A stretch of 64,000 bases of DNA from positions 713 through 64,712 of the forward strand of contig JAYPHU010000014.1 in assembly GCA_038127535.1 (NCBI GenBank), in the 5' to 3' direction. Positions 21,497 through 43,731 of the stretch are shown here, in pieces (the stretch's first letter is position 1; each line of letters begins with the position of its first letter). Under the pieces are notes generated by a model that made no database searches, was not told the origin of the DNA, and saw only the letters and a program-made list of their open reading frames with translations. This stretch comes from Rhodospirillaceae bacterium (GTDB lineage Bacteria; Pseudomonadota; Alphaproteobacteria; Rhodospirillales; UBA2165). A program made the position numbers and the translations under genes.

Positions 21497-22468
21497 TCAC
21501 ACCCGCAACGCCACAGCGCCGGTGGTTTTGCGCGCGGCGATGTCGATATGGGCCTGAACCGCGTCGGCGAGCGGGTACACGTGGCTGACGTCCGGCGTTA
21601 AGACCCCCTGACCGACCAGATCAAAGAATTCCTGCGCCCGGGCGCGCCGTTCCTCCGGCGTCCGCATATAGTGGGGCAGCGAGGATTTGTTGAAGAACAT
21701 CGACTTCGCGTTGATCGCCATAGCATCGACCGGCGGCAGCGGGCCTGACGACAGTCCGTAGTTCACGAAATAGCCGCGCACCGCCAGCGCTTCCAGATTG
21801 CCGTCATACGTTTCTTGGCCGACCGCGTCATAGACGACGGTGGCGCCCTTCTCGTTCGTGAAGGCCAGAACCTCCTTGGCGAAATCCTGATCCGAATAGT
21901 TGATCACCAGATCACAGCCCAGGCCCTTGACCAGATCGGCCTTGGCGTCGGTGCTGACCGTGCCGATGACCGTGGCCCCCAGATGCTTGGCCCATTGCAC
22001 CAGAATGGTGCCGACCCCGCCGGCGGCGGAATGCACCAATACCACGTCATCGCCGGTCACCGCATAGGTGGATTTCACAAGGTATTGCGCGGTTATCCCC
22101 CGCAACAGGCTGGAGCCGGCGACCTCGTCGCTGACACCGTCCGGTACCGGGATGACAAAGTCGGCAGGCACGCACTTCTTCTCGGCGTAGGCGCCCAAGG
22201 ACATGACATAACCGACCCGCTGGCCGACGGAGATGCCGTCAACGCCCTCGCCTACAGCGGCAACCGTGCCGGCGCCTTCAAAGCCGGGAATAGCCGGTGT
22301 CTCGGGCTTAATGAAATACCGGCCCTCCCGCATCATGACGTCGGCAAAGTTGACGCCGATCATGGTCTGGTCGACCAACACCTCGCCGGCGGCCGGCGTC
22401 GGGTCGGGCGCATCTCCATAGGACAGGACGTCCGTCCCGCCATAGTCCGTCATCGTGATGGCTTTCAT
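21497..22468 (-). CDS. Quinone oxidoreductase (Qor/zeta-crystallin, MDR family)
   Basis: GVNFAD, IPGFEGAG, HSAAGGVG, YDAVG, TTGAVAL. The likely start is MKAITM at 22468. Confidence 0.9.
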   Translation of the reverse strand: MKAITMTDYGGTDVLSYGDAPDPTPAAGEVLVDQTMIGVNFADVMMREGRYFIKPETPAIPGFEGAGTVAAVGEGVDGISVGQRVGYVMSLGAYAEKKCVPADFVIPVPDGVSDEVAGSSLLRGITAQYLVKSTYAVTGDDVVLVHSAAGGVGTILVQWAKHLGATVIGTVSTDAKADLVKGLGCDLVINYSDQDFAKEVLAFTNEKGATVVYDAVGQETYDGNLEALAVRGYFVNYGLSSGPLPPVDAMAINAKSMFFNKSSLPHYMRTPEERRARAQEFFDLVGQGVLTPDVSHVYPLADAVQAHIDIAARKTTGAVALRV

Positions 22469-22518
22469 ACCTACTGTTCCTTTGTCTGATAATTTTAGGA
22501 GAGGAGCCTCGCCGCCCC

Positions 22519-23376
22519 TTAAAAGCTCTTGGTCTGTTGCGGCCGCCAGCGGGAGAACCGGGCCTCGATGGAGCGCACGATCCCGGTCAGGATCAGCGAC
22601 ATGGCCATGAACAGGATCAGCCCGGCGAACACCACATCCACTTGGAAGGAGCCGGACGCCCGGACCATGATCACCCCGACGCCGTTGGACGAGCCGCCGA
22701 AGAACTCCGCCACCACCACGCCCAACACGGCGCGGCCGATGGCGAGCCGCAGCCCGGCGATGATGAACGGCAGGGAATTGGGTATGACCACCAGCTTGTT
22801 GATCTCCCACTCGTTCGCGCCGTAGGATTTCACCACATTGATAAGCAACCGGTCGGCGTTCTTCACCCCTTCGTATGTGTTGATCAGCAGCGGGAACAAT
22901 GCGCCGATAAACACCACGACAATGACCGACCACATGCCGATGCCGAACCAGATCAGAATGAGCGGCAGGAACACCAGCCGGGGCGTCGCATTGATCGCCG
23001 TGATAAACGGATCGAACATGTCGCTAAGTACTTGGGAGCGGCCCATGACAACGCCCAACGGCAAGGCGACAATGATGGAGAGGCCCAGGCCCAGGCCAAA
23101 GGCGCTGGCGCTGAACTGCAGCGCCGGCCACAATTTGCCGCTGGCGATCAGGTCGCCGAACGCGCCGACGATCATAGTCGGCGTGGCGAAAAACAACTTC
23201 ATGCCCTTCGACAGCGTGAACACCGACGGCACCAACTGCCAGATGATGATCATCAGGGCGATGAAACCGAAGCCTAGGAACAGGGACTCGTTCTTCTCCC
23301 AAAAGCCGGGATTGTTGATGTCGTCCACGGGCTCCACGGGGGCAAGACCGGTATCGGGCATATCCATTTTGCTCAT
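22519..23376 (-). CDS. ABC permease, NitT/TauT family
   Basis: PRLVFLPL, VKSYGA, LPFIIAGLRLAIG, VVAEFF. Confidence 0.92.
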   Translation of the reverse strand: MSKMDMPDTGLAPVEPVDDINNPGFWEKNESLFLGFGFIALMIIIWQLVPSVFTLSKGMKLFFATPTMIVGAFGDLIASGKLWPALQFSASAFGLGLGLSIIVALPLGVVMGRSQVLSDMFDPFITAINATPRLVFLPLILIWFGIGMWSVIVVVFIGALFPLLINTYEGVKNADRLLINVVKSYGANEWEINKLVVIPNSLPFIIAGLRLAIGRAVLGVVVAEFFGGSSNGVGVIMVRASGSFQVDVVFAGLILFMAMSLILTGIVRSIEARFSRWRPQQTKSF

Positions 23377-23388
23377 CGCCGCCGCCCC

Positions 23389-24198
23389 CTACATGCCCAC
23401 GCGCCACGGGAAGGCCGTGCGCTCCGCCCAGCGAATGCCTTCGGTGAACAGGATGGCGACCACCATCATCACCAGGATGTAACCGAACATCCGGTCCAGC
23501 ACATACATGTCGCCATACCAGGCGATACGGTAGCCGACCCCTTCGGAGGCGGCGAAGAACTCGCCCACCAGGACGCCGATCAGGCCGCGGCCGATGGCGT
23601 AGCGCGCGCCGGCGATGACGAATGGCAGCACCGTCGGCACGATGACGATGCGATAAAGATCCATCTCCTTGCCACCGAAGGAAAGTACCGTGTTGATCAG
23701 CAGCGGATCAACGGATCGCACCCCGGCCAGGGAGTTAAAGACAAACGGAAAGACGCAGAGAACGAATATCAGGATCGCCTTGCCAGCAACGCCGACGCCG
23801 AAAAAGATGATCACCAGCGGCGCGACGGCCACCAGCGGGCTCGCGTACAGTGCCGTCAACAACGGGTCCAACGAATAGCCCACCTTTTCCCGCCAACCCA
23901 TCACCACGCCAACCGGAATGCCGATCACCACCGCCGCGCCGAAGCCGAACAGCAACGGCCGGCCGCTGACCAACAAATCCCGCCATAGAATGCCGCTTTC
24001 CATGTCGCGCGTAATGCCGAGGAAAATCAGACTCGGCTTGGAAATAACGAACTTATTGAGGGGGATAAACCAAGTGAGCAGCGCCTCCCACACCAGGAAG
24101 AACAAAATCACGGCGATGCCGCCGATGATCAGCCGCCGCCAGGTCTGCCAAAACGTCAGTTTGCCGACTTCTTCCTCTTCCATGACGTGGTCCGTCAT
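23389..24198 (-). CDS. ABC permease, NitT/TauT family
   Basis: SPLVAVAPL, LPFVIAGARYAIG, VGEFFA. Confidence 0.92.
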   Translation of the reverse strand: MTDHVMEEEEVGKLTFWQTWRRLIIGGIAVILFFLVWEALLTWFIPLNKFVISKPSLIFLGITRDMESGILWRDLLVSGRPLLFGFGAAVVIGIPVGVVMGWREKVGYSLDPLLTALYASPLVAVAPLVIIFFGVGVAGKAILIFVLCVFPFVFNSLAGVRSVDPLLINTVLSFGGKEMDLYRIVIVPTVLPFVIAGARYAIGRGLIGVLVGEFFAASEGVGYRIAWYGDMYVLDRMFGYILVMMVVAILFTEGIRWAERTAFPWRVGM

Positions 24199-24201
24199 CC
24201 C

Positions 24202-24993
24202 TTAATCCACCACCGGGCCGCCCTGGGAGTCAATCTCGTCCTTGAGCTCGTTCCAAATTTGCAGCTTTAAGTCATTAAACTCCGGCGTCACCCGCATTTC
24301 ATAATCCCGGGGCCGAGCCAGCGGAATATCGATCAGCTTCTTGGTCCGGCCGGGCCGTTTGGTCATCACGATCACCCGGTCGGAGAGATACACCGCCTCC
24401 TCGATCTGGTGGGTCACAAACAGAACCGTCTTCTTCGCTTCCTGCCAGATGCGCAGTAGTTCCGCCTGCATAATATCACGTGTCTGGGCGTCTAGCGCCG
24501 CAAACGGTTCATCCATCAACAGCACGTCCGGGTCCGAGACCAGGGCGCGGGCGATGCCCACCCGTTGCTTCATGCCGCCCGAGAGCTCGTGTGGATAATG
24601 ATTTTCAAAACCGGCAAGCCCGACCATCTCGATAAACTTCTGGCTGGCGTCCCGGCGCTCGGCCTTGGAGACGCCGCGCAGTTCCTGACCCAGCCCTACA
24701 TTGTCCATCACCGTCCGCCAGGGCAGCAGGCCGAATTCCTGGAACACCATGGCCCGGTCCTGGCCCGGCCCGGAGACCGTTTTACCGTTGATCGACATCA
24801 CCCCCGAGTTCGGCGGGATGAGACCTAGCAATACGTTTAGAAAGGTGCTCTTGCCGCAGCCCGACGGGCCGACGATCGAGACAAACTCACCCTCGTCCAC
24901 GTTTAGATTGAAATCCTGAAGCGCCATCACCGGACGCCGGTTTGGCGGTGTGAAGGTCAGATTGATGTTCTCGGCCTTGATATAGTCGGCCAT
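24202..24993 (-). CDS. ABC ATP-binding protein, TauB/SsuB-like
   Basis: GPSGCGKST, LSGGMKQR, LLMDEPFAALDAQTR. Confidence 0.95.
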   Translation of the reverse strand: MADYIKAENINLTFTPPNRRPVMALQDFNLNVDEGEFVSIVGPSGCGKSTFLNVLLGLIPPNSGVMSINGKTVSGPGQDRAMVFQEFGLLPWRTVMDNVGLGQELRGVSKAERRDASQKFIEMVGLAGFENHYPHELSGGMKQRVGIARALVSDPDVLLMDEPFAALDAQTRDIMQAELLRIWQEAKKTVLFVTHQIEEAVYLSDRVIVMTKRPGRTKKLIDIPLARPRDYEMRVTPEFNDLKLQIWNELKDEIDSQGGPVVD

Positions 24994-25246
24994 TTCGTAC
25001 CCCTTTGGGTTCCGGCGGCATTGCGTTTTAATCGTCGGAACAGTCCCTGTTCATGCGGACGCCCTGTAGGCATCCAGTTGCCTAAAGGTAGGCATGTTTG
25101 CCGGGGCGGGTCCAGAGTTATCTCGCGCCTCAGTTCGTCCAAAATTTTCGGCTTTCAATAGCGGGCGTACGGGAGATAGTATGGCTCGCCGATACGAACG
25201 AAAAATCTAAACAGGCTCTCAAACCAAACACAGGAAGGTGCATGTC

Positions 25247-26263
25247 ATGTTGAAATCCAAGTTTCTCATTGCCGCGATGGCCCTGGCCGCTGTCGCCTTC
25301 GCCGGCGCCGCCGAGGCCCAGACCAAGATTAAGGTCGGCCGCACGCTAAGCGGCTCCGGGTTCCACATCCCCGTCTATATCGCCTACTCCAAAGGCCTCT
25401 TCAAAAAAGAAGGGTTGGACGCGGAAATGGTCTCTATGACCGGTAAGGCGCTGGTCACCGCCGGCGTTTCCGGCAATATCGATTTCCTGCCCGTGCCGGG
25501 CGGCGGATCGCAGGCCTCTTTGCAAGGCGCGAAACTCAAGTACATTGTAGGCGAGTCCCTGATTTCCCAATGGGCCCTGGTCGCCGATCCGAAGATCAAG
25601 TCGGTGAAAGACCTCAAAGGCAAGACCGTCGGCTACGGCCGGGCGGGCGCCGCCGACTATGATGAAGGCGAAATCGTGCTTAGCCGCTTCTTCGACATGC
25701 GGGTGGGCCGGGACTACAAGGTGATCAGTTTCCAAGCTGAATCCGACCGGGTTGCGGGCCTCATCAACGGTGATATCGTCGCCGGTCTGATGTCTTTCCC
25801 GACAGCAGCCCGTGCGCAGGTCGCCGGCTTTAAGATGCTGGTGAAAACCGGTCAGTATCTGCCCCGCGTCGGCGGCAGCATCTGGACTCGCGCCGAGTAT
25901 GTGGAGAAGAACCGGGGCACGGTGAAGAAGTTCATCCGCGCCATCGCCAACTCCATCGAGTACCTCCGGACCAACAAGGAAGGTTCCGTCGAAGTCATCA
26001 TGGCGGAATTCGGCCTCAAGGACAAAAAGCAGGCGGGCATCGTCTGGGATGAAATTCATGATCAATATTCCCCGGACTTGCCGGCCGATCTATTCAAGAA
26101 ACTGTTCGAAGGCCGTCAAAAACGTATGGTGAAACGCGGCCTGTGGCCGAAAGACAAGCCGATGCCGGACGTCAATAAGTTCATCGCGCGCGAACTGCTG
26201 GACGAAACCCTTCGGGAAATGGGCTACTTCCTGCAGCCCCGGCCGAAGCCCGACGCCGGTTAA
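25247..26263 (+). CDS. ABC substrate-binding protein, NMT1/SsuA-like
   Basis: Signal peptide ending AEA-Q, YIAYSKGLFKKEGLD, KDLKGKTVG. Divergent from the cognate permease/ATPase genes. Confidence 0.88.
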   Translation: MLKSKFLIAAMALAAVAFAGAAEAQTKIKVGRTLSGSGFHIPVYIAYSKGLFKKEGLDAEMVSMTGKALVTAGVSGNIDFLPVPGGGSQASLQGAKLKYIVGESLISQWALVADPKIKSVKDLKGKTVGYGRAGAADYDEGEIVLSRFFDMRVGRDYKVISFQAESDRVAGLINGDIVAGLMSFPTAARAQVAGFKMLVKTGQYLPRVGGSIWTRAEYVEKNRGTVKKFIRAIANSIEYLRTNKEGSVEVIMAEFGLKDKKQAGIVWDEIHDQYSPDLPADLFKKLFEGRQKRMVKRGLWPKDKPMPDVNKFIARELLDETLREMGYFLQPRPKPDAG

Positions 26264-27933: not shown

Positions 27934-28695
27934 TCAGCCTGCGTCCGGCGGCGTCAGTTCCTTCCGCTTCCACCACAACAAATTGCCCTGTAGGAATGAC
28001 TGCGCGAGCTCGCTTTCCGGTTTATCGAAAAAGCTTTGCGCTGGCGATCGTTCGATCAGCCGACCCCGATACATAAACAGTACATCATCGGCCAGACGCC
28101 TGGCCTGGGCCATATCGTGGCTGGACATGATGACGGTCGTCCCCGACGCGCGGATCGCCTGGATAAACTCTTCAATCGCATGGGTGGCGGACGGGTCCAA
28201 CGCCGCCGTCGGCTCATCCAGGAATAGAACCTCGGGCTGGAGGGTCCAGGCCCGCGCCACGGAGAGACGCTGTTGCTCCCCGCCTGACAACCGACGTGCC
28301 GAAACCTTCGCCAGCCGCCGCAGCCCGGTGCGTTCCAGCATTTCTTCGATGCGGCTCACTCTCTCCGCCTTGTCGACGTTGCGCTGGCAGAGGGCGTGAT
28401 CCAGGTTGGCGTAGACCGAGCGGCGCAGCATCACCGGACGCTGGAACACCATGGCCTGATGGGGCTGGGGGTCTTCCGCCGCCGGCCCCTGCCAGGTCAC
28501 ACTGCCGGCCGTGGGCTCAATCAATCCATGACAAAGGCGCAATAGTAGGCTTTTCCCGGCCCCGTTCGGCCCGAGAACAAAACTCAACGAGCCCGCTTTA
28601 AACTCGGTACTCACATCTTTGATCAAACGGATGCCGTCGGCCTCGAACTCCACGCCCGAGAGCGAAAGGGGTAAAATGTTGGAGAGGCTAGCCAT
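27934..28695 (-). CDS. tupC: Tungstate ABC transporter ATP-binding protein
   Basis: GPNGAGKS, MVFQRPVMLRRSV, LSGGEQQR, LDEPTAALDP. It follows tupB. Confidence 0.8.
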   Translation of the reverse strand: MASLSNILPLSLSGVEFEADGIRLIKDVSTEFKAGSLSFVLGPNGAGKSLLLRLCHGLIEPTAGSVTWQGPAAEDPQPHQAMVFQRPVMLRRSVYANLDHALCQRNVDKAERVSRIEEMLERTGLRRLAKVSARRLSGGEQQRLSVARAWTLQPEVLFLDEPTAALDPSATHAIEEFIQAIRASGTTVIMSSHDMAQARRLADDVLFMYRGRLIERSPAQSFFDKPESELAQSFLQGNLLWWKRKELTPPDAG

Positions 28696-29392
28696 ATCGC
28701 TTGCTCGCCGATTCATTAATCAGGTAGGCGGCCGCGTTGACGCCCAGCGCCAGCACCAACAGCACGATGCCGAGGCCCAAAGCCAATGCCAGATCGCCCT
28801 TGCTGGTCTCAAGTGCGATAGCCGTAGTCATGACGCGAGTGACGTGATCGATATTGCCGCCGACGATCATCACCGCACCGACCTCCGCACTGGCCCGGCC
28901 GAAGCCCGCCAGCACCGTGGTGATCAGGCTGAACCGGTTGTCCCACAACAGGGTCGCAATAATCTGATCCGGTCCGGCGCCGAGGGAGCGCAAATGCTCC
29001 TCGTACTCCCGCCACAAATCTTCTGTGGTTTGGCGGGTCAGCGCCGCTACGATGGGGGTGATCAGGCAGACCTGGGCGATGATCATGGCGGTGGGTGTGA
29101 ATAGCAGGCCCAGCGTGCCCAAGGGTCCGGCGCGGGACAACAGTAGGTAAACAATAAGCCCGACCACCACCGGCGGCATGCCCATCATAGCGTTCAGCAA
29201 CACAACGATCACCGTCCGGCCGGGGAACTTAAAGACCGCCAAGGCCGCGCCCAAGGGTAGGCCGATCACGCAGGCGATCAGCACAGCGGTCAGGCTGACT
29301 TGCAGCGACAGTAGTACGATCTCGGCCAGACCGCTTTCCAAGGTGATGATCAGGCCCCAGGCGGCGGCAAATGCGTTCCCGATATCGGTCAT
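28688..29392 (-). CDS. tupB: Tungstate ABC transporter permease
   Basis: MGMPPVVVGLIVYLLLSRAGPLG, AEVGAVMIVGGNI, TRVMTTAIALETSKG. Confidence 0.88.
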   Translation of the reverse strand: MTDIGNAFAAAWGLIITLESGLAEIVLLSLQVSLTAVLIACVIGLPLGAALAVFKFPGRTVIVVLLNAMMGMPPVVVGLIVYLLLSRAGPLGTLGLLFTPTAMIIAQVCLITPIVAALTRQTTEDLWREYEEHLRSLGAGPDQIIATLLWDNRFSLITTVLAGFGRASAEVGAVMIVGGNIDHVTRVMTTAIALETSKGDLALALGLGIVLLVLALGVNAAAYLINESASKRYG

Positions 29393-29410
29393 AACAGTCC
29401 GTTCGTTGAC

Positions 29411-30169
29411 CTAGAATGCCTGGCTAAAGAAGAACACAGCGCCCGCCAGAATAACACCCTCTATCAGCAGGGTGTGCATTCGGACCGATGTGCGGCGCAA
29501 CAGCCAGCGCCCGACCACCGCGCCCGGCATGGTACAGAGCCCCAACATCAGCCCGATGACGATTAGCGGGAAGTTCAACAGGGGTGAGGCCCCGAAGACC
29601 ACGGTCTTGGTGGCGTTCAACACCACGCCCAACGCCGCCGTCATCGCCGCCAATTGCGCGCCTCTCAGTCCCGCACCCAAGAAAAACGGGGCCAGCATCA
29701 ACCCGGCGCCCATGGTCACCCCGCTGACAACGCCATAGGCCGGCCCGACGGCAACAAATCCCCAGGTGCCCATCTTGACGTCTTTCTTCTCCAAATACCG
29801 GCGACCCGGCACGGACACGGCCATGAACAGGCCCAACAGCAGGGCGATCGTGTCCGCCGGCAGATAGACGAAGATAAACGCGCCGGCGATCATGCCAGGA
29901 AAACTGGAAATCATCAGCGGCACATAGATGCCCCAGTGGATTTCCCGCCAGAACACATAAAGCCGGGTGATATTGCTGACCACGATCGCGACGGAGACCA
30001 CCGGCACCGCCACCTTGATCCCCAAAATCGGCGCGATGCAGATCAGCAACAGCAACGCGCCGGCAAAGCCTGAAAAACTGTGGAACACGGCGGTGGCGAA
30101 CGCCGCCACGGCCATCAGTAACAGCAGAGGGAAGGTAATGCCGATCTCGGCGAGGATGGAACTTAGCAT
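29411..30169 (-). CDS. Sulfite exporter TauE/SafE family protein
   Basis: About 8 TM segments with two repeated halves (SFSGFAGALLL, SGVTMGAGLMLAP). Confidence 0.8.
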   Translation of the reverse strand: MLSSILAEIGITFPLLLLMAVAAFATAVFHSFSGFAGALLLLICIAPILGIKVAVPVVSVAIVVSNITRLYVFWREIHWGIYVPLMISSFPGMIAGAFIFVYLPADTIALLLGLFMAVSVPGRRYLEKKDVKMGTWGFVAVGPAYGVVSGVTMGAGLMLAPFFLGAGLRGAQLAAMTAALGVVLNATKTVVFGASPLLNFPLIVIGLMLGLCTMPGAVVGRWLLRRTSVRMHTLLIEGVILAGAVFFFSQAF

Positions 30170-30365
30170 GATGGTGTTGGCATGATTTGAGGCCGGACCT
30201 TACAGGGAAAAACCGGCTCTGGTAAGCAATTTGGAACGGCTAAGGGGGGGGGTGTTGACGGGCCGGGGTCTGGCCATTAAACCTCCGAGTCATTACAATC
30301 TTCGCCAGTGAAATTAGGAGTCCGGTATGCACTTTGGCCGGGGCGAAATCTAGGAGAGAACCTGA

Positions 30366-31232
30366 ATGTCTGACACGAATATCGTACGCATCGCGCCGAA
30401 CAACCCAGTTTTCGATCTGCCGGTTTTGGTCGGTATTGAGGAAGGCCTGTTTGAAAAAGCCGGCTTGGATGTCGCCTTCGCCGCGTCCTATGACGACCGC
30501 GAAGCTGACAATGAAAAGATGGAATATCTCTCCCGCCTGAAGGAAAGCATGTTCGAAAAGGGCGACGCGGACAACTACAACGTCTGCGAATGGGCCACCA
30601 TCGACCGGATCGAACGCGGTTCCGGTGGCGGTCACATTGCCGCGCTGCGCGCAGCTGTCGGCGCCCAGGCCATTCTGACCTTTGACGACGCTCTGCAGAC
30701 CCCGCGGGACATGAAGGACGTGCCGGTCGCCGTTCAGGAATACACCGGTTCCCACTTCACCTGCATTCAGATGCTGGAAAGCGCCATCGGTTACGAGCAC
30801 ATCAACATCGTGCAGGGCCGTCTGCCGCAAAAGCGGTATGACGGACTCAAAAGCGGTGAATACCGCGCTGTCACCGTGATGGAGCCGTTCATCAGCTTAG
30901 GGTTAAAGGAAGGCGCTCACATCATCGCCTCGTCCTTCTATCGCGGCGGCGAAGTGATCGGTCCGAACCTCACGACCGAGCAGCGGGAAACCTTCTACGA
31001 AGCCGAGAATGCCGCCGTCGATATGATCAATGCGGACTTCTACAAGTATGCGCACTATCTGACCGACCGCACCAAGGGTGCATTGGAGCCGAACGAACTG
31101 CTCCGCGCCTTTGTCCACTACAAGCACGTGGATTACTACGCGGAAGACCTATTCAACCGCGCCTACGACTGGATGAAGGAACGCGACTTCACCGAAGGCC
31201 GAAGCGACCACAACAACATCGTGTTTGCGTAG
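30366..31232 (+). CDS. Periplasmic-binding-protein type II fold protein (NMT1/SsuA-like) lacking a signal peptide
   Basis: LPVLVGIEEGLFEKAGLDV, VAVQEYTGSHF, VTVMEPFIS. The N-terminus is polar, with a GGAGAG RBS. Confidence 0.7.
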   Translation: MSDTNIVRIAPNNPVFDLPVLVGIEEGLFEKAGLDVAFAASYDDREADNEKMEYLSRLKESMFEKGDADNYNVCEWATIDRIERGSGGGHIAALRAAVGAQAILTFDDALQTPRDMKDVPVAVQEYTGSHFTCIQMLESAIGYEHINIVQGRLPQKRYDGLKSGEYRAVTVMEPFISLGLKEGAHIIASSFYRGGEVIGPNLTTEQRETFYEAENAAVDMINADFYKYAHYLTDRTKGALEPNELLRAFVHYKHVDYYAEDLFNRAYDWMKERDFTEGRSDHNNIVFA

Positions 31233-31253
31233 AACGTCGTTTTAAGTTTGGAG

Positions 31254-31291
31254 AACGCGGGGGCGGCTCAGGCCGGCCCGCGTTTTTCTTT
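31254..31291 (+). terminator. Rho-independent terminator
   Basis: AACGCGGG...CCCGCGTT followed by TTTCTTT. Confidence 0.7.
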
Positions 31292-31441: not shown

Positions 31442-32422
31442 TCACCCCACCTTAAATATCCCGGCGGCCGTGTCGCCCAGGATCATGGCCTTTTCTCCGT
31501 CGGTCAGGTCAGCGTCCTCCACCACCTTGAGCGGGTTCGGATCGCCGATGGGGAACGGATAGTCGGAGCCCAGCATCAGCTTCTCCGCACCGACGACCGT
31601 CTTCAGGAAATTGAGCGCGTTGGGATCGAACAGCACTGTATCGAAATAGAGCCGCTTCAGCCCGTCCACCGGGTTCGCATAGTCGTGGCCCGGGATTTCG
31701 ATATTCCGGTTCAGCCGGCCCAGCATGTAAGGCAGTGCGCCGCCGCCGTGGGACAGGATGAACTTCATCCCCGGATACTTGATAAAGTGCCCGGAATACA
31801 AAAGCCGGGAAATGGCGATGGTGGTGTCCACGCCGCGCCCGACCGCGTTCATCATGCCGAAATCCAACAGGCGCGGATCACCGCAGCCGAACATGGGATG
31901 CAGATACAGGACGGCGCTCAAGGACGAGGCCGCTTCCCAGAACGGATCCAGATCCGGATCGTCCAGATTGCCGGAATCCCCGTGGGGCTGGGTGCCGATC
32001 ATGGCACCGGCAAATCCGGCGTTTAAAGCTTCTTCCAGCACCTCCGCCGCCAGCTTGCCGCTTTGCAGGGGCACCGTGGCGAGCGGCACCAAGGGATCAA
32101 TCCCGTCGGTGCCGGACATGAGATATTCGTTCAGAAACCGGCTCCAGGCCACGCCCTCTTCCGGCGGCAATTCATAGCCGAAACTGTCCATCCAGCCGCC
32201 GTTGATCTGATGGGTGATGCATTGATGATCCATCCATTCCAGCCGCTGATCCGTATCCCGCAGTTTCGGCGAAATGGGCCGGGTCGCCCGCCCACCGGTA
32301 AAGGCGAGCTGGTACTTGTCCCCGTCCGCCAGCAGTTCCACGTTGGGGAAGCGGCTGATTTCCTTTTGCAGGGCGTCGAGCATCGCCTGAGGGGTGAAAT
32401 GGGCGTGGGTATCAATGATCAT
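31442..32422 (-). CDS. Amidohydrolase-2 family protein (ACMSD-like decarboxylase/hydratase)
   Basis: IDTHAH, LYLHP, SHGGG, LGSDYPF. Confidence 0.9.
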   Translation of the reverse strand: MIIDTHAHFTPQAMLDALQKEISRFPNVELLADGDKYQLAFTGGRATRPISPKLRDTDQRLEWMDHQCITHQINGGWMDSFGYELPPEEGVAWSRFLNEYLMSGTDGIDPLVPLATVPLQSGKLAAEVLEEALNAGFAGAMIGTQPHGDSGNLDDPDLDPFWEAASSLSAVLYLHPMFGCGDPRLLDFGMMNAVGRGVDTTIAISRLLYSGHFIKYPGMKFILSHGGGALPYMLGRLNRNIEIPGHDYANPVDGLKRLYFDTVLFDPNALNFLKTVVGAEKLMLGSDYPFPIGDPNPLKVVEDADLTDGEKAMILGDTAAGIFKVG

Positions 32423-34821
32423 TTGTCGCGTCCTTCGTGTAACAGGGCTTCGATATCGGTCATGCGCATAGGCAGTTCTTCCAGGCTGAGACCCAGCGGA
32501 TAAAGCGCGTCATTGACGGCGCTGGCCATGGCGGCCGGCGCACCGAGATAGCCGCCTTCGCCCGACCCTTTCTGGCCGTGAGAGGTCAGCGGCGACGGTG
32601 TGCAGTGTTCCACATCCTTAACGTACGGCACCTCGAATGTCGACGGCATGACGTAGTCGACGAAAGTGCCACTCAGGAACTGGCCATCCTCGCCGTAGGC
32701 GAATTTCTCATAGAGCGCCGCGCCGATCCCGTGGGCCACACCGCCGATGATCATGCCCCGCACGATATCCGGGTTGATTACCGTGCCGCAGTCATGGCCG
32801 ATGAAATACTCATGGACGGTCACCTTGCCGGTGCCGGGATCGATCTCGACGAAGGGAATATGCGCCTGAAAGGAAAAACAGGGATAGAGCTGCACCCGGT
32901 TGTTTTCGTCCGGATATTCGCCGCCCAAGGGCACCTGCATCACATGCAGCGCCTGCAGGCCCGGCTCCATCCCGTCGGGCAACAGGTCATAGCGCCGGTG
33001 GGCGATGTTTACCAATTCGGCCCAGGTGAGTTTGCGGGACGGATCATTTCGGTCGGAAATATCGCCGTTGTTGTATTCAAGCTGCTCAATCGGCACCTGC
33101 AGGTTATGCGCCGCGATTTCGTGCAACTGTTTCTTCAGCTTATGCGCCGCACCGTCCGCCGCACCGCCCAGCATCACCGCCATCCGGCTTGCGACGGGGC
33201 TGCGAGTCGGCAGGCCGGCCAGGGTATCGGCGTGGATCACGCGGATGTCTTCCGGGTCCTTCTGAAATTCCTCACCCAGGATCGTGGCGACCAGGGTCTC
33301 ATGGCCTTGACCGGACGTGGTCGTGCCCATGGTGCCGATGATATTGCCGGTGCTATCGATCCGGACCTGACAGCCCTCCATGAAGGTGCTGATCTCCAGC
33401 TTCGGGTTCAGCAAGTATTCGAACATGTTGTTGCCGCCCGACGGCTCCAAACACGCGCCGATGCCGATCCCCGCCAGATTGCCGGCGGCGCGGATGTCAT
33501 CCCGGCGCTTCACCAGATTTTCGAAATCGGCCAGCTCCATGGTTTTTTCCAGCACCGTGTGATAGTCGCCGGAGTCATACTTGGTGCCCGTGGGATTGAG
33601 ATAGGGAAACTCGTCATGGCGGATAAAGTTCCTCTGACGCACCTCAAGCCGGTGCATTTTCAAATGCCGGGCCACCTTGTCTACGGCCAGCTCGATCATG
33701 AAGTTGGTCGGACCTTGGCCCATGCCGCGCACCGGCACCTGTCCTGTCTTGTTGGTACTGACCGAGATCGGGTGATAGTGGACGCTGTTGATCCGGTAGG
33801 GCCCGACCAGCGCGGCGATGGGCTTGCCGAGCTGGAACGGCCCCCGGCCCGGATAAGCCCCGCAATCATCGATGGCCTTGATCTTCATGGACTTGATGAC
33901 GCCGTCATTGGTGAAGGCCACATCGGTATAGAAAATTCGGTCGGGGCCGTGAGCGTCGCCACCGGACATGTTGGTCAGCCGGTCCTCGATAAAGCGCACC
34001 GGCACGCCGCCCAGTTTCTTCGACAGATAGGCCACCAGCACCGTGTGCTTGATGCCCCGTTTCACGCCGTAGCTACCGCCCACATCCACATCCTGGTGCA
34101 CGCGGACGCTGTTCAGCGGCAGACGCATGGCGTTGGCGATCTGCTCCTGATAGTTCGGCATTTGGATTGACGCCCAGACCTGCAGGCTTTCCGTTCCCCC
34201 GTCCCATTGGGCCATGGCGCCGAAGGTCTCAATCGGCACCGTGGACGACCGGCCCCAGCGCGCCCGGAACGACAGCACGTGGTCGGCGGCGGCGAAGTCC
34301 TCTTCGACCGGTCCCCAGACGAAATCCTTCTCCAGCACCAGGTTGGTGCCTTGATCCGGATGGACCAGCGGCGCATCGGGCTTCAGCGCTTCTTCCGGAT
34401 CGACCACGGGCTCCAGCGGCTCGTAGTATACCTCGATCAGCTCCACCGCATCTTCCGCCGTGTAGCGATCCTCGGCGACAACGGCGGCCACCCATTCCCC
34501 GGCGTAGCGGGTCAACTCATGGGCCAGCGGATACCAGCGCAGATTGGGCACGTCCGGGCCGTGGTAGAGCGGCGACGTATGCTCCGCCAGCTCATCCCCG
34601 GTCAAAACCGTCAGAACGCCGGGCACCGCCAGTGCGGCCTCCGCATTGATGGAGAGGATTTTGGCGCGCGGGTGGGGGCTCGCCAGGATCGCTACGTGTT
34701 TGGTGTCCTGCACCGCCACGTCCTGGATGTACTTGCCCTTGCCGGTGACGAAGCGTTTGTCTTCCTTCACCCGGCGCTTGCGGGCGACGTAATGATAATT
34801 GCTGCCTGCAGGTGCGCTCAT
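32419..34821 (-). CDS. Xanthine dehydrogenase family molybdopterin-binding subunit (second system)
   Basis: EDKRFVTGKG, VGGSYGVK, PVRGMG, SGQGH, KGSGEGG. Confidence 0.92.
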   Translation of the reverse strand: MSAPAGSNYHYVARKRRVKEDKRFVTGKGKYIQDVAVQDTKHVAILASPHPRAKILSINAEAALAVPGVLTVLTGDELAEHTSPLYHGPDVPNLRWYPLAHELTRYAGEWVAAVVAEDRYTAEDAVELIEVYYEPLEPVVDPEEALKPDAPLVHPDQGTNLVLEKDFVWGPVEEDFAAADHVLSFRARWGRSSTVPIETFGAMAQWDGGTESLQVWASIQMPNYQEQIANAMRLPLNSVRVHQDVDVGGSYGVKRGIKHTVLVAYLSKKLGGVPVRFIEDRLTNMSGGDAHGPDRIFYTDVAFTNDGVIKSMKIKAIDDCGAYPGRGPFQLGKPIAALVGPYRINSVHYHPISVSTNKTGQVPVRGMGQGPTNFMIELAVDKVARHLKMHRLEVRQRNFIRHDEFPYLNPTGTKYDSGDYHTVLEKTMELADFENLVKRRDDIRAAGNLAGIGIGACLEPSGGNNMFEYLLNPKLEISTFMEGCQVRIDSTGNIIGTMGTTTSGQGHETLVATILGEEFQKDPEDIRVIHADTLAGLPTRSPVASRMAVMLGGAADGAAHKLKKQLHEIAAHNLQVPIEQLEYNNGDISDRNDPSRKLTWAELVNIAHRRYDLLPDGMEPGLQALHVMQVPLGGEYPDENNRVQLYPCFSFQAHIPFVEIDPGTGKVTVHEYFIGHDCGTVINPDIVRGMIIGGVAHGIGAALYEKFAYGEDGQFLSGTFVDYVMPSTFEVPYVKDVEHCTPSPLTSHGQKGSGEGGYLGAPAAMASAVNDALYPLGLSLEELPMRMTDIEALLHEGRDK

Positions 34822-35303
34822 GTTCCCTGCTCCTTCATCCGCTCGGCGGCGAGCCGGATCGCGTCAATGATCTGGGTATAGCCGGTGCAGCGGCAGATGT
34901 TCCCGCCGATGGCTTCTCGGATATCCTCGTCGGTCGGCGACAAGGTTTCCTCCAGCAGCGCATGGGCCGACATCAACATGCCCGGCGTGCAATAGCCGCA
35001 CTGCATGCCATGGGCGTCCCGGAACGCATCCTGCAGAAGACCGGGCTCGCCATCTTCCTGGCAGAGGCCTTCCACGGTCTGGACCGTGTCGCCGTCTGCC
35101 TGCACCGCCAGCATCAGACACGACCGAATCGGCTCTCCGTTTACAATGACCGTGCAGGCGCCGCAGACGCCGTGTTCGCAGCCCATATGGGTGCCGGAAA
35201 GATGCAGCTCGTCCCGCAGGAAATCCAGCAGCGTCATGCGGGGTTCGGCGGGCGCAGTGGCGTCCTTGCCGTTGACGGTGAGAGAAATATCGCGCCGGCT
35301 CAT
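34818..35303 (-). CDS. (2Fe-2S)-binding small subunit
   Basis: GCEHGVCGAC...RSC, QCGYCTPG, CRCTGY. Confidence 0.94.
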   Translation of the reverse strand: MSRRDISLTVNGKDATAPAEPRMTLLDFLRDELHLSGTHMGCEHGVCGACTVIVNGEPIRSCLMLAVQADGDTVQTVEGLCQEDGEPGLLQDAFRDAHGMQCGYCTPGMLMSAHALLEETLSPTDEDIREAIGGNICRCTGYTQIIDAIRLAAERMKEQGT

Positions 35304-36184
35304 GACAGGCTACCTCCGGCATCAGCAACCGCATCCGCCAGCGCCCGGCCGATCAGCACCCGGGCCACCCGGCGGCGGTAATCCGCGCTGCCATGCAGGT
35401 CATCCGCCGGATCCATCTGGTCGCCGATCTCCGCGAGCGCCTCGTCAATCAGGCTTTCGCTCAGCGCATTGCCGGTGAGATTTTCTTCCGCGTCCCGCAG
35501 CCGCACCGGTGTGCCTGCCACTCCGCCAACCGCGATCGCTGCCTTTTGGCACACGCCGGTATCGTCCAAGAGGACCTGCGCACCGGCTGAAACCACAGCG
35601 AAATCACCATGCCGCTCGGCCACCTCGTGGAAGCCCGCGCCCGTGCGTCCTGCCTCCCGCCACACGGGAAAATTGATTTCGACCAGGATTTCATCTTCGT
35701 TCCGGTCGCTCATCATCGGGCCTTGGTAAAACGCATCCGCCGCGACGGGACGCGTACCGGTCACCGACTGTAGATTAATCTCCACCCCCAGCGCCACGGC
35801 CACCAGGGGAATCTCCGCCGCCGGGTCGCCATGGGCAATACTGCCGCCGACCGTTCCCCGGTTCCGGGTCTGGTGATGGCCGACCCAGGGCAACGCCTTG
35901 GCCAGCAAGGGCAGGTTCTCGGTGATGACGGCCGATTTCAACGCCGCCGTTTGCCGGGTCGCCGTCTTGATCCGCACCGCATCACCGGTCCCATCAACCC
36001 CGGCCCAATCTTCAATGCCGTTGATATCAATTAGCACAGACGGCCGCGCCAAACGCATGGCCAGCATGGGCACCAGGGTCTGGCCGCCGGCCAGGATCAT
36101 GCCGTCATCGCCGGCCTCGCTCAGCAACTGCAGTGCATGCTCCGCCGAGGTGGCGGCAATATGATCAAAGGGAGCGGCTTTCAT
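35300..36184 (-). CDS. FAD-binding medium subunit
   Basis: MKAAPFD, LAGGQTLVP, RNRGTVGGS, ERHGDFA. Confidence 0.93.
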   Translation of the reverse strand: MKAAPFDHIAATSAEHALQLLSEAGDDGMILAGGQTLVPMLAMRLARPSVLIDINGIEDWAGVDGTGDAVRIKTATRQTAALKSAVITENLPLLAKALPWVGHHQTRNRGTVGGSIAHGDPAAEIPLVAVALGVEINLQSVTGTRPVAADAFYQGPMMSDRNEDEILVEINFPVWREAGRTGAGFHEVAERHGDFAVVSAGAQVLLDDTGVCQKAAIAVGGVAGTPVRLRDAEENLTGNALSESLIDEALAEIGDQMDPADDLHGSADYRRRVARVLIGRALADAVADAGGSLS

Positions 36185-36208
36185 TCGACTGACACCAAGA
36201 CCGGACGC

Positions 36209-37858
36209 TTAGTCCTTGTCCCAGCCATCCTCGACCTGACGGACAGAGGTCTCTGGCGGGAAGTCTTTATCCTTCTGCTGGCGGGTCAGGGAAACTTCGC
36301 CGTTCTTCAGATAGTCGCCCTTGGCGGCGTTCTGCGCAGCGGTTTCCCAAATCTGATGCCAGTCACCGAGAGAATACCCGTGCCACGGGGATTCGGGCCG
36401 AAGCGCCGGCAGATCAAGTTTCTCCCACAGCGCCTTGCCTTTCTCCATGAACTCCTTTGTCGGCAGCGCCAGGGGCGGCATGTCGGACTTCATGGTCGCA
36501 TCTATCAAGAGCGTGCTGTCTTCCTCGCCGGTGTGCTCCCGCTTGGGTCCGTGTCCCTGGCCGCGGTGGGGAATGGTTTGCACATCTTCGATCGGGTTCA
36601 AGCGATAGGCCATGGCCCAGAGGATCGCGTCCGCGCTGTCCGGATCGATATCCTCGGTCACGGCGATGGTGATCTTGCCCATATCGCCCTTGTAGAAGGC
36701 CGCGCCGTTGAGCGCGCGCCAGACCTCTGTCTTGGGCACGCCTTTCTCCATCACAATGATGGTCACCCGCAGAAGCCCGGTCAGCGGTTCGTGCAGCGCC
36801 ACTTTTTTAACGCCGCGCACGTTCAGTTCCTTGGTCAGGTGATTGAGGAACAGGGGCTCGTAAGCCACCCGCTTGATCACACTGGATTCGGACGGAGTCA
36901 CCTGACTGATGTAGGACGGGATCACCGCGTCCTTGCGCATGGTGATCGCAGTGACCTCCATGGGCATGTTGAATTCTTCCAGAGCAACGTGGCCATGGGA
37001 TTCACCAAACGGCCCTTCCGGTTCCAGCACGGTTGGGTCAATGAGGCCTTCGATCACCACTTCGGATTCCGCCGGCACCATCAGATCGACAGACTTGGCG
37101 CGCACCATGTTGATGGGCTCGCCCGCCAGGCCGCCGGCCACGTCGACTTCATCCATGCCGATGGGCAGTTTCTGCGGGCCCATGAAGGCCACATAGGGCG
37201 GACAGCCAAGCACTATGGCGCAAGGCATTTTCTCGCCCTTGGCCTTATATTTCTGCCAGTGGAGATACCCGCCGGCGCCGCCGACGCGGGTCGCCATACG
37301 CACTACCAGCCGGTCCGGAGCCTTCAGCCCGCACCGGTACGTCCCCATATTGTGGACGCCGGTTTCCGGATCGGCGGTGACGATATTGGTGGCCGAAAGC
37401 GTCGGTGCGCTGTCGAAACCGGGCGTCGAGACGGGAATCGGCAGAGCGTCCAACCCTTTGCCTTCGCCTTGCAGATCGTCGCCTTCCCAAATTACGTCGT
37501 GGCAAGGTGCCGTGTTGACGATCCGGGGCGGGATCGGATTGGCGATGGCCTTTTGCCATTTCTCCGAAATCTCGTCGACCGAAGCATCCATGCCCACGCA
37601 ATAGACGCCGCGATTGCCCGCCATAGCGCCGACGGCCACCGGAATATCGTATTTCCGGCCCTTGGCGTTGACGATGTTGGTGAACAGGAAGGCCTTGCGG
37701 TCGTCTTCGGCGATACCGCCCCGGTACTGCCAGCGCACCAAGGAATGCATCTCGGAGTCCTTATCCACCGGCGTATCGATCTCATAAAGCAAATCGGCTT
37801 TTCTAAGCGCATCCAGATGCTGGTGCATGTCGCGATATTTATGACTGGTCGTACTCAA
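36209..37858 (-). CDS. UbiD family (prFMN-dependent) decarboxylase
   Basis: KAFLFTN, NMGTYR, AIVLGCPP, VPAESEVVIEG, EGPFGE, EDIDP, IDAT. Confidence 0.9.
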   Translation of the reverse strand: MSTTSHKYRDMHQHLDALRKADLLYEIDTPVDKDSEMHSLVRWQYRGGIAEDDRKAFLFTNIVNAKGRKYDIPVAVGAMAGNRGVYCVGMDASVDEISEKWQKAIANPIPPRIVNTAPCHDVIWEGDDLQGEGKGLDALPIPVSTPGFDSAPTLSATNIVTADPETGVHNMGTYRCGLKAPDRLVVRMATRVGGAGGYLHWQKYKAKGEKMPCAIVLGCPPYVAFMGPQKLPIGMDEVDVAGGLAGEPINMVRAKSVDLMVPAESEVVIEGLIDPTVLEPEGPFGESHGHVALEEFNMPMEVTAITMRKDAVIPSYISQVTPSESSVIKRVAYEPLFLNHLTKELNVRGVKKVALHEPLTGLLRVTIIVMEKGVPKTEVWRALNGAAFYKGDMGKITIAVTEDIDPDSADAILWAMAYRLNPIEDVQTIPHRGQGHGPKREHTGEEDSTLLIDATMKSDMPPLALPTKEFMEKGKALWEKLDLPALRPESPWHGYSLGDWHQIWETAAQNAAKGDYLKNGEVSLTRQQKDKDFPPETSVRQVEDGWDKD

Positions 37859-37957
37859 GACCTCTGCCCTCCCCAGGCTTAATTGCGGCTGTTTCGCCTA
37901 ATATGCCCGAGCATATCCGCTAGTTCCAGGCGTGAATTCCGCCAAATTCCGTCGGGG

Positions 37958-39013
37958 CTATACCTTGTCGAACCCGTAGAGCGCGCGGGCGTTGTCATCA
38001 AGAATCTTGTCGATCGCGGAAACGGCAATTTCCCCGTTTTCTCTCAATTTGCGCAACGCCTCAATCTCCGTCGAGGTATCATGGTGACCATAATCCGTGC
38101 CGACCACCAGATTATCCTCACCGGCCGACGCAATCACATAGGGTAGATCGTCGGTCACCTGGCAGGCCACGTAGACATTGTTGTCGGCCAAGATCGAGGG
38201 GCCGAATTCCTTGCCCGTTTTCTTGAAACGTAATTTCAGATCGTTGAGCACATAGGGAATCCACTGTGCGCTCACCTCGATAAATCCCCAACGGACTTTG
38301 GGAAATTTTTCTGACAGGCCTTCCAGAATGAGCGAATGCACGGTGCCGATCACCGGCAACTTAAATTTCGAGAAGCCGGCTTCATCCAGGAACATATCGT
38401 GGACGTCGTAGGAGCCGTTGCCAGCGTGATGACAAATGGCCAGATCAAATTCCTCCGCCAGCTCAAACAGCGGATAGAAATACGGATCGACCAACCGCCG
38501 GCCGTTCTCTAGGCCCCGCATGAATATCCCGCAGGCGCCGTTTTCCGTGGCGAATTGGATTTCTTCGCGCAGGCCTTCCATGCTCATCAGCGGCAGGACC
38601 GCGACCCAGCGCAGCCGGCCGTTACCGTGTTTCCAAATTTCGGCGAGCCAGCGGTTATAGGATCGGGTCATGGCCCGTTCCACCGCCGCCTTCTTGGTCA
38701 GCGGGCGCAGGAATAAGGTCGGATAGAGGACCTGCACATCGATCCCCAGCTCGTCCATATGATTGAGCCGTTCCTCGATATCGGCCATTTCCCGCGCGGT
38801 TTGGGTGGTGTTGTAGCCCAGGTTCTGATCCCGGGAATGCACCCGGTTGTCGATCAGCCAGTATTCCTTCATCTCCTTGCCGTGGAGACCCACATCCGTA
38901 TACCCCGAGGTTTGATTCACCATGCGCGGTCTCAGCGCCTCCTCGCCTGCTTCCATAAATTCCCAGGTGCGGGGGGATTCGATCACGTGTGCGTCTGAAT
39001 CGATTGAGCCCAT
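37958..39013 (-). CDS. Amidohydrolase-2 family protein
   Basis: IDSDAHV, GIDVQVLYPT, ICHH, FIEVSAQW, GTDYGH. Confidence 0.88.
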   Translation of the reverse strand: MGSIDSDAHVIESPRTWEFMEAGEEALRPRMVNQTSGYTDVGLHGKEMKEYWLIDNRVHSRDQNLGYNTTQTAREMADIEERLNHMDELGIDVQVLYPTLFLRPLTKKAAVERAMTRSYNRWLAEIWKHGNGRLRWVAVLPLMSMEGLREEIQFATENGACGIFMRGLENGRRLVDPYFYPLFELAEEFDLAICHHAGNGSYDVHDMFLDEAGFSKFKLPVIGTVHSLILEGLSEKFPKVRWGFIEVSAQWIPYVLNDLKLRFKKTGKEFGPSILADNNVYVACQVTDDLPYVIASAGEDNLVVGTDYGHHDTSTEIEALRKLRENGEIAVSAIDKILDDNARALYGFDKV

Positions 39014-42312: not shown

Positions 42313-42609
42313 GCCCGGAAATTCTCCCTGTGTGGGCAATTCTCCTCGAAGAATTGCTGATGCCTACTTATTTATGAGCCAATGTGTAGCAGATTAATCT
42401 GCCCCAGTTCCATGAAAACTCTTCAATTTTTCGGGAAAATTGCTTAGAACACTTAGGAGTTTTGCCGCAGTCCTGATAGGATACCGGCGTTTTTAGCAAT
42501 ATGGCGGTATGCCGGAATGCAGGTTGTCGCCACAATTGCGGCACAATTTATCGGTTCAAATTTGTCGGAATGATCTCAATTTTCCCGGCAATGATCCAAA
42601 GGAGGTAAT

Positions 42610-43644: not shown

Positions 43645-43677
43645 GCCTGTACCGCTGACACAAGACTGAGTTAGAGA

Positions 43678-43713: not shown

Positions 43714-43731
43714 CAGATCAGGGGAAGAACC

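Follow-up and report, generated by a model that had tools for sequence, protein, structure and literature searches.

What is a protein with the fold of an exported binding protein doing in a form that cannot be exported? The question is raised by a gene at 30366..31232 (+) in a 64,000-nucleotide stretch of DNA from a Rhodospirillaceae bacterium (contig JAYPHU010000014.1); this whole stretch is called the window below. The coding sequence specifies a protein of 288 amino acids, here P0001, which the original prediction, made from the letters alone, had read as a stand-alone NMT1/SsuA-like protein lacking a signal peptide and as a candidate cytoplasmic enzyme. Our analysis supports well the location of P0001 in the cytoplasm and, by profile and structural model, confirms its fold; it further suggests that an invariant cysteine, C74, has taken the place of a glycine-rich loop with which related binding proteins hold sulfonates. 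That P0001 is an enzyme, probably cofactor-independent, which evolved from a sulfonate- or taurine-type binding protein and acts on an imported organic anion, is a reading for which we judge the case to be evenly balanced.

A leaderless protein of the cytoplasm

An in-frame TGA (30363..30365, +) stands immediately 5′ of the P0001 start codon, the stop-to-stop open reading frame (ORF) beginning at 30366, and a Shine-Dalgarno sequence read directly from the DNA (AGGAGA, 30352..30357, +) lies 8 nt upstream of the ATG. Because the stop codon abuts the start codon, an N-terminal extension or signal peptide is excluded, and with it the upstream start giving a leader that the original prediction had raised against itself. 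As that prediction had noticed, the N-terminus has no hydrophobic core: the highest Kyte-Doolittle mean of any 12-residue stretch is 1.47, whereas P0272, the window's own leader-bearing substrate-binding protein (SBP) and the exported comparison, reaches 2.65. In the structure superposition, the first residue of the P0001 model pairs with residue 25 of SsuA (3e4r), where the mature SsuA protein begins, and an hhalign alignment of the P0001 family with P0272 (probability 96%) sets target residue 12 opposite P0272 residue 38. The relatives are leaderless too, 31 of 33 having only 14–24 residues ahead of the conserved P19. Since P0001 and 31 of the 33 distant relatives begin at the start of a mature binding protein, we consider a cytoplasmic location well supported, and the absence of a signal peptide was correctly called.

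Fold and nearest structures

On its own, P0001 matched no Pfam family even at E ≤ 10, no NCBIfam family (E ≤ 0.01) and, by phmmer, no PDB sequence, and it scored on none of the models TIGR01728, TIGR01729, PF09084 and PF13379. Its SsuA-type fold is visible solely through the family profile and the structural model. The profile, made from 33 superfamily sequences with relatives drawn from a 50%-identity library, matched SsuA (2x26) at E 1.5e-10 and TauA at 4e-8, and reached Thi5 marginally (E 0.005, residues 14–45 only). PF09084 was matched, weakly, by 22 of the 33 relatives and TIGR01728, below its cut-off, by 19; the NCBIfam search gave the relatives sub-threshold SsuA/TauA matches only.

An AlphaFold (AF2) model made with 24 close orthologues was unusable, with a predicted local distance difference test score (pLDDT) of 50, while an alignment of 67 diverse sequences, distant relatives included, gave a usable one (pLDDT 96.1; predicted template modelling score, pTM, 0.92), which ESM Atlas models of the P0001 family match at a template modelling score (TM) of 0.98. 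The best structural match to this model was SsuA 3e4r (Z 23.8, TM 0.79, root-mean-square deviation (rmsd) 2.8 over 263 residues), followed by Staphylococcus aureus 3un6 (Z 23.3), the cytoplasmic regulatory domain of CmpC in third place (Z 22.4), NrtA (Z 22.1) and TauA (Z 22.0); PqqT was also among the closest matches, all of which are binders. The enzymes came lower: Thi5 (Z 18.4, TM 0.68), MqnD (Z 17.8), DszB (Z 16.5, TM 0.68), MqnA (Z 12.8–14.8) and 4,5-dihydroxyphthalate decarboxylase 9jp7 (Z 13.3, rmsd 4.3). The predicted structure thus confirms an SsuA/NMT1-type two-lobe binding-protein fold, as first proposed, and places P0001 nearer to true binding proteins (Z 22–24) than to the enzymes Thi5, MqnD and DszB (Z 16–18). 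The earlier appeal to DszB, THI5, MqnA/MqnD and 4,5-dihydroxyphthalate decarboxylase as precedents is borne out as regards fold, at lower Z; no sequence link to any of the four was found, and the step to ‘enzyme’ is therefore one that we infer.

An invariant cysteine at the putative site

The original prediction had seen a possible catalytic Cys and Glu in an NVCEW motif (N72-V73-C74-E75-W76; 30579..30593, +). This motif is invariant among 24 orthologues, yet so is half the protein. In the 33-sequence superfamily alignment (32 relatives counted, 23–68% identical), C74 is the sole invariant residue (32/32). W76, R81, G128 and W269 are each kept in 31 of the 32 relatives, P174 in 30, E173 and N222 in 29, E75 in 27 (otherwise Q, V or A) and H130 in 24; position 77, an Ala in P0001, is Gly in 31 and a small residue in all 32. 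The cysteine of the proposed pair has accordingly gained weight and the glutamate is the weaker partner. P0001 carries the superfamily signature throughout: no leader, about 280–320 amino acids, C-E-W-G/A-x3-R after strand 3, a G-S-H-Y/F loop, an M-E-P hinge and W269.

In the secondary structure of the model, C74 ends strand 70–74 and is followed by helix 75–84; a position of this kind, after a strand and before a helix, lines the cleft in type II binding proteins. By hhalign, Y-N-V-C-E-W-A-T of P0001 falls on L-P-V-P-G-G-G-S of P0272, with V73-C74-E75-W76 on P-G-G-G. TauA grips its sulfonate with Gln30 and with the main-chain amides of Gly61, Gly79 and Thr132 (PMC6906117). By residue offset, C74 would correspond to TauA Gly79 and N12 to TauA Gln30, and the profile alignment puts Q101 on the TauA hinge residue Glu106 and G128-S129-H130 on T132-T133-H134. 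The latter residues belong to a putative retained lobe-2 anion-binding loop, T127-G128-S129-H130 (30744..30755, +), aligned by profile (6ssy and 2x26) with TauA S131-T132-T133-H134. As far as these alignments can tell, an invariant Cys has replaced the lobe-1 Gly-rich sulfonate loop, and the family has kept the ancestral anion loop of lobe 2.

Distribution and constraint

Homologues of P0001 fall into 2836 clusters at 90% identity (E ≤ 1e-3), the best 120 of which are 70–98% identical and 282–303 amino acids long. In the 50%-identity library the whole orthologous group is represented by P0122 alone, and the next full-length relatives are 23–43% identical (272–321 amino acids). The orthologue itself was found in 251 of about 185,000 species genomes, at 66–98% identity and across Alpha-, Beta- and Gammaproteobacteria. 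Nearly all of these carriers are metagenome-assembled genomes (MAGs), from Rhodospirillales, Hyphomicrobiales/Xanthobacteraceae, Burkholderiales and some Gammaproteobacteria. Binding proteins are usually conserved far less tightly than the members of this orthologous group. Within the bacterial family to which the window belongs, superfamily members are patchily distributed (17 of 24 genomes), and they occurred in one of 16 genomes sampled from other families of the order. A search for phage carriage of the orthologous group gave no tblastn match in 50,697 phage records and none in IMG/VR; the 33-sequence superfamily set was too divergent to seed the IMG/VR scan, and the negative result thus covers the orthologous group.

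Automatic annotation names some of the homologues NitT/TauT or nitrate transporter binding proteins (JGI, NCBI), and ESM Atlas does likewise. Thousands of such proteins stand in public databases as nitrate/sulfonate ATP-binding cassette (ABC) transporter SBPs, a name that is almost certainly wrong for a protein that is not exported. The group is widespread in soil and marine Proteobacteria and unusually constrained, and has neither a Pfam nor an NCBIfam model. Literature searches on a periplasmic binding protein (PBP)-fold dihydroxyphthalate decarboxylase, on THI5-like cytoplasmic catabolic proteins and on clusters of UbiD with xanthine-dehydrogenase-family genes found no report of a leaderless member.

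Comparison with characterized proteins of the fold

By both profile and structure (Z 22–24 over 259–263 residues), the closest proteins to P0001 are SsuA and TauA (3e4r, 2x26, 6ssy; TIGR01728/TIGR01729), with which it has in common the two-lobe type II fold, its length, the lobe-2 G/S/T-S/T-H anion loop and a (D/E)-P motif at the hinge. Unlike them, P0001 has no signal peptide, shares no operon with a cognate permease or ATPase of the NitT/TauT type, carries an invariant Cys-Glu-Trp in place of the Gly-rich lobe-1 loop, and belongs to a group that is far more tightly conserved. The cytoplasmic regulatory domain at the C-terminus of NrtC/CmpC (9uai, 9uak) is NrtA-like and, like P0001, leaderless. 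However, that domain is attached to an ABC ATPase and, by binding nitrate or bicarbonate, regulates transport, whereas P0001 stands alone, has the invariant Cys and is encoded near varied transporters or none.

The desulfinase DszB (2′-hydroxybiphenyl-2-sulfinate desulfinase; 2de2/2de3) is a cofactor-free enzyme that resembles P0001 in being cytoplasmic and of the same fold, and a cysteine in its cleft reportedly cleaves the C–S bond beside the anionic group; by analogy, DszB may serve as a working model of how P0001 acts. It is absent among the 42 chains matched by the profile at E ≤ 10 and was not matched by sequence either; it is also some 60 residues longer, model residues 5–288 aligning structurally with residues 20–354 of the DszB chain. 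Of the DszB catalytic residues Cys27, His60 and Arg70, Cys27 would by residue offset follow strand 1 and fall near N12 of P0001, not C74. As the two cysteines appear to lie in different loops, they would be of independent origin if both are catalytic. Thi5/NMT1, the hydroxymethylpyrimidine phosphate (HMP-P) synthase (4h67, 4esx), is a cytoplasmic enzyme of the same fold and Pfam clan. Thi5 is marked by a pyridoxal phosphate-binding Lys62, a sacrificial His66 and a Cys-rich motif. Its active-site Lys62 appears by offset to follow strand 3, as C74 does, but position 74 of P0001 is Cys rather than Lys; no evidence of a pyridoxal phosphate lysine or a sacrificial histidine was seen in P0001, whose gene contexts are catabolic, not thiamin-related.

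MqnA and MqnD (3a3u, 2nxo, 6o9a) share the PBP fold with P0001, which has no PF02621 match and no menaquinone context; they use no catalytic cysteine. The 4,5-dihydroxyphthalate decarboxylase 9jp7 is a PBP-fold aromatic-acid decarboxylase, the kind of reaction proposed below for P0001; it is a distant structural match and not a sequence match. In the futalosine pathway, MqnA and MqnD work on chorismate-derived aromatic carboxylates in the inter-lobe cleft, and DszB, Thi5, MqnA and thiaminase I are enzymes on the same fold (PMC9672406). Catalysis on this fold is therefore already known, from DszB, Thi5, MqnA/MqnD and thiaminase I; it is the P0001 family that is undescribed, and misnamed in the databases.

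Neighbours in the window

Divergent from the P0001 gene across 196 bp lies an operon on the minus strand (27934-30169) that encodes a TauE-family membrane protein (29411-30169; PF01925), a TupB-like ABC permease (28688-29392; NF038017, 262.8 bits against a cut-off of 100) and an ABC ATPase (27934-28716; PF00005). It carries no binding-protein gene and is taken here as genomic context; its permease is of the molybdate/tungstate (TupB/ModB-like) rather than the NitT/TauT type. A complete SsuABC-like importer, with the leader-bearing SBP P0272, is found further off at 22519-26263. The statement in the original prediction that there was no permease thus does not hold to the letter. On the other side the gene does face a UbiD/molybdenum hydroxylase (Mo-hydroxylase) operon, as had been described: this convergent operon (31442..39013, −) encodes an Amidohydro_2 protein, UbiD, the FAD, 2Fe-2S and molybdenum cofactor subunits of a Mo-hydroxylase, and a second Amidohydro_2 protein, and its link to P0001 is suggested only. 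No XdhC-like gene was seen in it.

In two Rhizobiales MAGs (L057 and L077) the orthologue again has this permease/ATPase pair nearby, there with TupA/ModA-like SBPs. In these loci a TctC–orthologue pair lies between MoeA/MobA/FdhD-like genes and a TupABC/ModA/Mop-like cluster (L057, about 3-2633 and 6902-10001; L077, 1-1462 and 6910-10833), identities that were read from N-terminal sequences alone. A tie between TauE and a sulfite-releasing reaction was considered and rejected, TauE adjoining the orthologue only in this window and in L006.

Gene contexts of orthologues and relatives

Genes were called in 80 orthologous loci and their neighbours clustered for 70, and the counts that follow refer to four genes on each side unless stated otherwise. 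A TctC/Bug receptor gene lay directly upstream on the same strand in 23 of the 70 loci; it was mostly one orthologous TctC (70–100% identity), and at least two further, unrelated TctC types occupied the same upstream place, making at least three types. An FAD_binding_3 monooxygenase was found near the orthologue in 17 of 70 loci, CoA-transferase III in eight, TAXI-TRAP systems in six and major facilitator superfamily (MFS) transporters in six, with amidase, HMGL-like, HpcH aldolase and FAA hydrolase genes in smaller numbers. BPD_transp_1-type ABC permeases or ATPases were present in only about five of the 70, and those systems seem to have an SBP of their own. Within 6 kb on each side, 11 of the 80 loci had UbiD, three a Mo-hydroxylase large subunit and four Amidohydro_2. 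As for the distant relatives, P0185 sits after a TctC gene, and P0126 has a complete ABC importer, SBP included, upstream of it and dehydrogenases downstream. The contexts of orthologues and distant relatives are thus catabolic and uptake-related, with no one fixed pathway.

Another leaderless NMT1-like protein, ‘NMT1b’ (307 amino acids, weak PF09084 match), was encoded near the orthologue in 23 of the 70 loci. It stood at about −3/−2 in L018, L028, L030, L034, L038, L040-L042, L044, L045, L052, L054 and L058, and at +3/+4 in L029, L049, L056 and L063, and was consistently paired with an FAD_binding_3 monooxygenase or a UbiD decarboxylase. NMT1b may represent a further cytoplasmic family of the PBP fold that is linked to enzymes acting on aromatic acids. 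Both it and ‘NMT1c’ (325 amino acids), likewise a recurrent neighbour, were tried as members of the Cys superfamily and rejected, being other PBP-fold families.

The UbiD/Mo-hydroxylase link

The window's own genome (G000; 3.53 Mb, 98.7% complete) has four superfamily members and 21 Mo-hydroxylase large-subunit genes. The P0001 gene lies 1.2 kb from a large subunit; the member on contig C5, the last gene of a TauD/class II aldolase operon, is separated by 9 nt from one and by 2.3 kb from UbiD; and the member on C68 lies 314 nt upstream of one, a spacing that is uncertain. The fourth, on C8, adjoins neither Mo-hydroxylase nor UbiD. Three of the four members are therefore within 1.2 kb of a large subunit, two of these being also at most 5 kb from UbiD. 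By a rough estimate a random gene of this genome would be that near a large subunit about 2–3% of the time, so that three of four is unlikely by chance, although clustering of catabolic genes inflates this contrast. P0005, 86% identical to P0001, keeps the same convergent operon with a different upstream side, and the adjacency is seen again in L006. In G036, from another bacterial family, a member, UbiD and a large subunit lie within 5 kb of each other on one contig, and in G019 a member is convergent with UbiD. In G003, G012, G015 and G017, some of whose contigs are short, no adjacency of members to UbiD or a large subunit was seen. These observations suggest that the association which the original prediction had pointed to in the window is real in this genome, where three of four members adjoin Mo-hydroxylase, and in close kin, and is not general for the family, most orthologous loci (77 of 80 for Mo-hydroxylase, 69 of 80 for UbiD) being without it.

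Some further features of these modules were noted. The C68 member (G000:C68:2119-3300; L096) is on a 5.9-kb contig with N bases, which leaves its start and exact spacing uncertain. On C5 (G000:C5:119344-125940; L095 4027-10640), UbiD is followed after 5 nt by the large subunit, and neither an FAD nor a 2Fe-2S subunit gene adjoins the two; this pair is convergent on the operon of a TauD dioxygenase, a class II aldolase and the leaderless SsuA-fold paralogue, with TctC and a fused TctA-TctB upstream. Across the bacterial family (G000 and relatives G001-G040) each genome has 11–36 matches to xanthine-dehydrogenase-family large subunits, UbiD genes also abound (52 matches in G007, the maximum, and 33 in G024), and UbiD and a large subunit are often within 2–3 kb of each other on one contig (for example G003 C42, C27, C11 and C48; G017 C9, C82 and C8; G015 C20, C10, C2 and C25), which looks like a recurrent UbiD/Mo-hydroxylase module. 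The lumazine cluster of Cupriavidus LA-1 comprises a Mo-hydroxylase, an amidohydrolase-type isomerase and UbiD (PMC12391406), and a term search of that article turned up no binding-fold protein among the cluster's genes.

Proposed function and alternatives

As an enzyme, P0001 would act on an imported organic anion; carboxylates of aromatic or N-heteroaromatic rings are the likeliest candidates, ahead of sulfonates and sulfinates. To hold the anionic group, P0001 would use the lobe-2 loop kept from its ancestor, G128-S129-H130 (TauA Thr132–His134), probably with help from N12 and Q101 (near TauA Gln30 and Glu106). C74 would stand at the N-terminus of helix 75–84, where TauA and SsuA have the glycine whose backbone NH binds the sulfonate, and we propose from this position that its thiol lies next to the carbon bearing the anionic group. 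There the thiol could act as general acid or nucleophile, in a site shaped by W76 and R81, and the reaction might be a DszB-like ipso-protonation (with loss of CO2 or SO2), a Michael-type addition or an isomerization. In its own genome the gene probably serves the neighbouring decarboxylase/Mo-hydroxylase pathway. If C74 is catalytic, the family would add one more case, and a very large one, of catalysis arising on a binding-protein fold, with a readable evolutionary path (anion site kept, glycine loop turned into thiol), and it could fill an unassigned step in the breakdown of aromatic or N-heteroaromatic acids. A bolder version, which we hold to be doubtful, makes it a new class of cofactor-independent, Cys-dependent C–C or C–S lyases (of decarboxylase/desulfinase type) or isomerases on a sulfonate-binding scaffold, with the thiol replacing the anion-holding glycine loop, and, in this lineage, the missing step of the abundant, uncharacterized UbiD/Mo-hydroxylase modules that degrade polycarboxylated (hetero)aromatic rings.

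Several observations weigh against an enzymatic role. We infer catalysis for a family in which no member has a known activity, ligand or structure, and whose nearest structural neighbours are non-catalytic binders, among them the cytoplasmic CmpC regulatory domain (Z 22.4). No second candidate catalytic residue is invariant (E75 27/32, H130 24/32), and C74 is placed in the cleft by predicted secondary structure, by residue offsets and by a single hhalign alignment rather than by superposing the structures residue by residue. The gene contexts are heterogeneous; many of the 70–80 loci are closely related, so that the counts overstate independence, and chance adjacency to TctC is likely, given how many TctC genes these taxa carry. 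Finally, the P0001 gene is monocistronic here, which leaves co-regulation with any pathway unproven. Of the stand-alone cytoplasmic enzyme first proposed, the location in the cytoplasm and the origin as a leaderless offshoot of the SsuA/NMT1 fold stand, and the catalysis stays a proposal.

P0001 could instead be a non-catalytic ligand-binding protein of the cytoplasm, a sensor, a buffer or a means of handing off an imported organic anion, and might regulate a transporter or enzyme as the C-terminal domains of NrtC/CmpC do. The closest structures (SsuA, 3un6, the CmpC regulatory domain, NrtA, TauA and PqqT) would all agree with this, as would the retained anion-binding loop and the frequent adjacency to importers of four classes, namely tripartite tricarboxylate transporter (TTT), TAXI-TRAP, MFS and ABC. 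Yet an invariant Cys in place of a glycine loop offering backbone NH groups is not expected for simple binding, identities of 66–98% across proteobacterial classes are unusual for a binder, the different classes of the partner transporters make one conserved protein–protein interface unlikely, and the 288 residues form a single fold with no fused DNA-binding or signalling domain; we think this role possible, if on the unlikely side. Improbable, in our estimate, is an accessory factor of UbiD/Mo-hydroxylase modules that would chaperone or carry a cofactor (molybdenum cofactor or its sulfuration, prenylated flavin mononucleotide) or an oxyanion (molybdate, tungstate, bicarbonate). Such a factor would suit the own-genome adjacencies, in which three of four members adjoin large subunits and two of those are within 5 kb of UbiD, the triad of G036 and the convergent pair of G019; it would also suit the SBP-less operon with its tungstate-type permease beside the P0001 gene, the TupABC/ModA/Mop-like and MoeA/MobA-like genes beside the L057 and L077 orthologues (as read from N-terminal sequences) and the operon at 31442-39013, where XdhC was not seen. 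It fits poorly with the loci in which, within 6 kb, Mo-hydroxylase (77/80) or UbiD (69/80) is lacking; moreover, with 15–36 Mo-hydroxylase matches per genome chance adjacency is not negligible, and P0001 resembles neither XdhC nor molbindin nor any known cofactor carrier. The reading is speculative.

The two remaining explanations are nearly excluded. An ordinary ABC-transporter SBP, mis-started or unconventionally exported and serving the adjacent permease/ATPase that has none, is what the automatic names in JGI, NCBI and ESM Atlas and the divergent operon would lead one to expect, but we find it very improbable: the in-frame stop bars a longer N-terminus and leaderlessness is kept across the superfamily, the permease is TupB/ModB-like rather than NitT/TauT-like, and P0001 scores on no SBP family model and has its Gly-rich ligand loop replaced. 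Hardly credible is a bacterial Thi5/NMT1-type HMP-P synthase for thiamin pyrimidine synthesis. While the fold is the same (Z 18.4, TM 0.68) and the profile finds Thi5 weakly over residues 14–45 (E 0.005), P0001 has no PF09084 match, resembles Thi5 in sequence no further than the first helix and bears the signature C-E-W-G...R; the contexts are catabolic and never include thiamin genes, and the distribution is patchy within the bacterial family (17/24 genomes).

Expression signals and other features of the window

The third-position GC of the P0001 gene (0.75) is similar to that of neighbouring genes. Within the 196 bp that separate the gene from the divergent TauE operon is a candidate sigma-70-type promoter by consensus match, TGGCCA-17-TACAAT (30271..30299, +), which agrees with the consensus at 9 of 12 positions and is the sole site in the region (mean 0.3 in shuffled sequence); no inverted-repeat operator was found there. 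Downstream of the stop codon, folding gives an intrinsic-terminator-like hairpin (31250-31282, GC core CGCGGG/CCCGCG) followed by UUUUUCUUU, the whole spanning 31250..31291 (+). Its minimum free energy is −28.8 kcal/mol, with a z of only −1.65 against shuffles of the same GC-rich stretch, and it was not flagged by a simple consensus terminator scanner, probably owing to its long compound stem. On sequence grounds, the gene thus appears to be a monocistronic unit, divergent from one minus-strand operon and convergent with another; the ORF, and the terminator-like hairpin with its U-run 3′ of the stop, agree with the monocistronic gene with its own terminator that had been predicted.

Elsewhere in the window, a 478-amino-acid ORF at 21497-22933 (−) has zinc-dehydrogenase domains from residue 182, and either has an unusual N-terminal extension or is called from a start too far upstream; the plus-strand ORF 21815-22489 overlaps and competes with it. 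A fused TctA-TctB gene (718 amino acids; 40183-42339, −) lies 9 kb from the P0001 gene. Beyond it, a 401-amino-acid ORF on the minus strand (42556-43761), for which no Pfam match was found, is overlapped by a 344-amino-acid ORF on the plus strand (42610-43644), and one of these two may be a TctC receptor.

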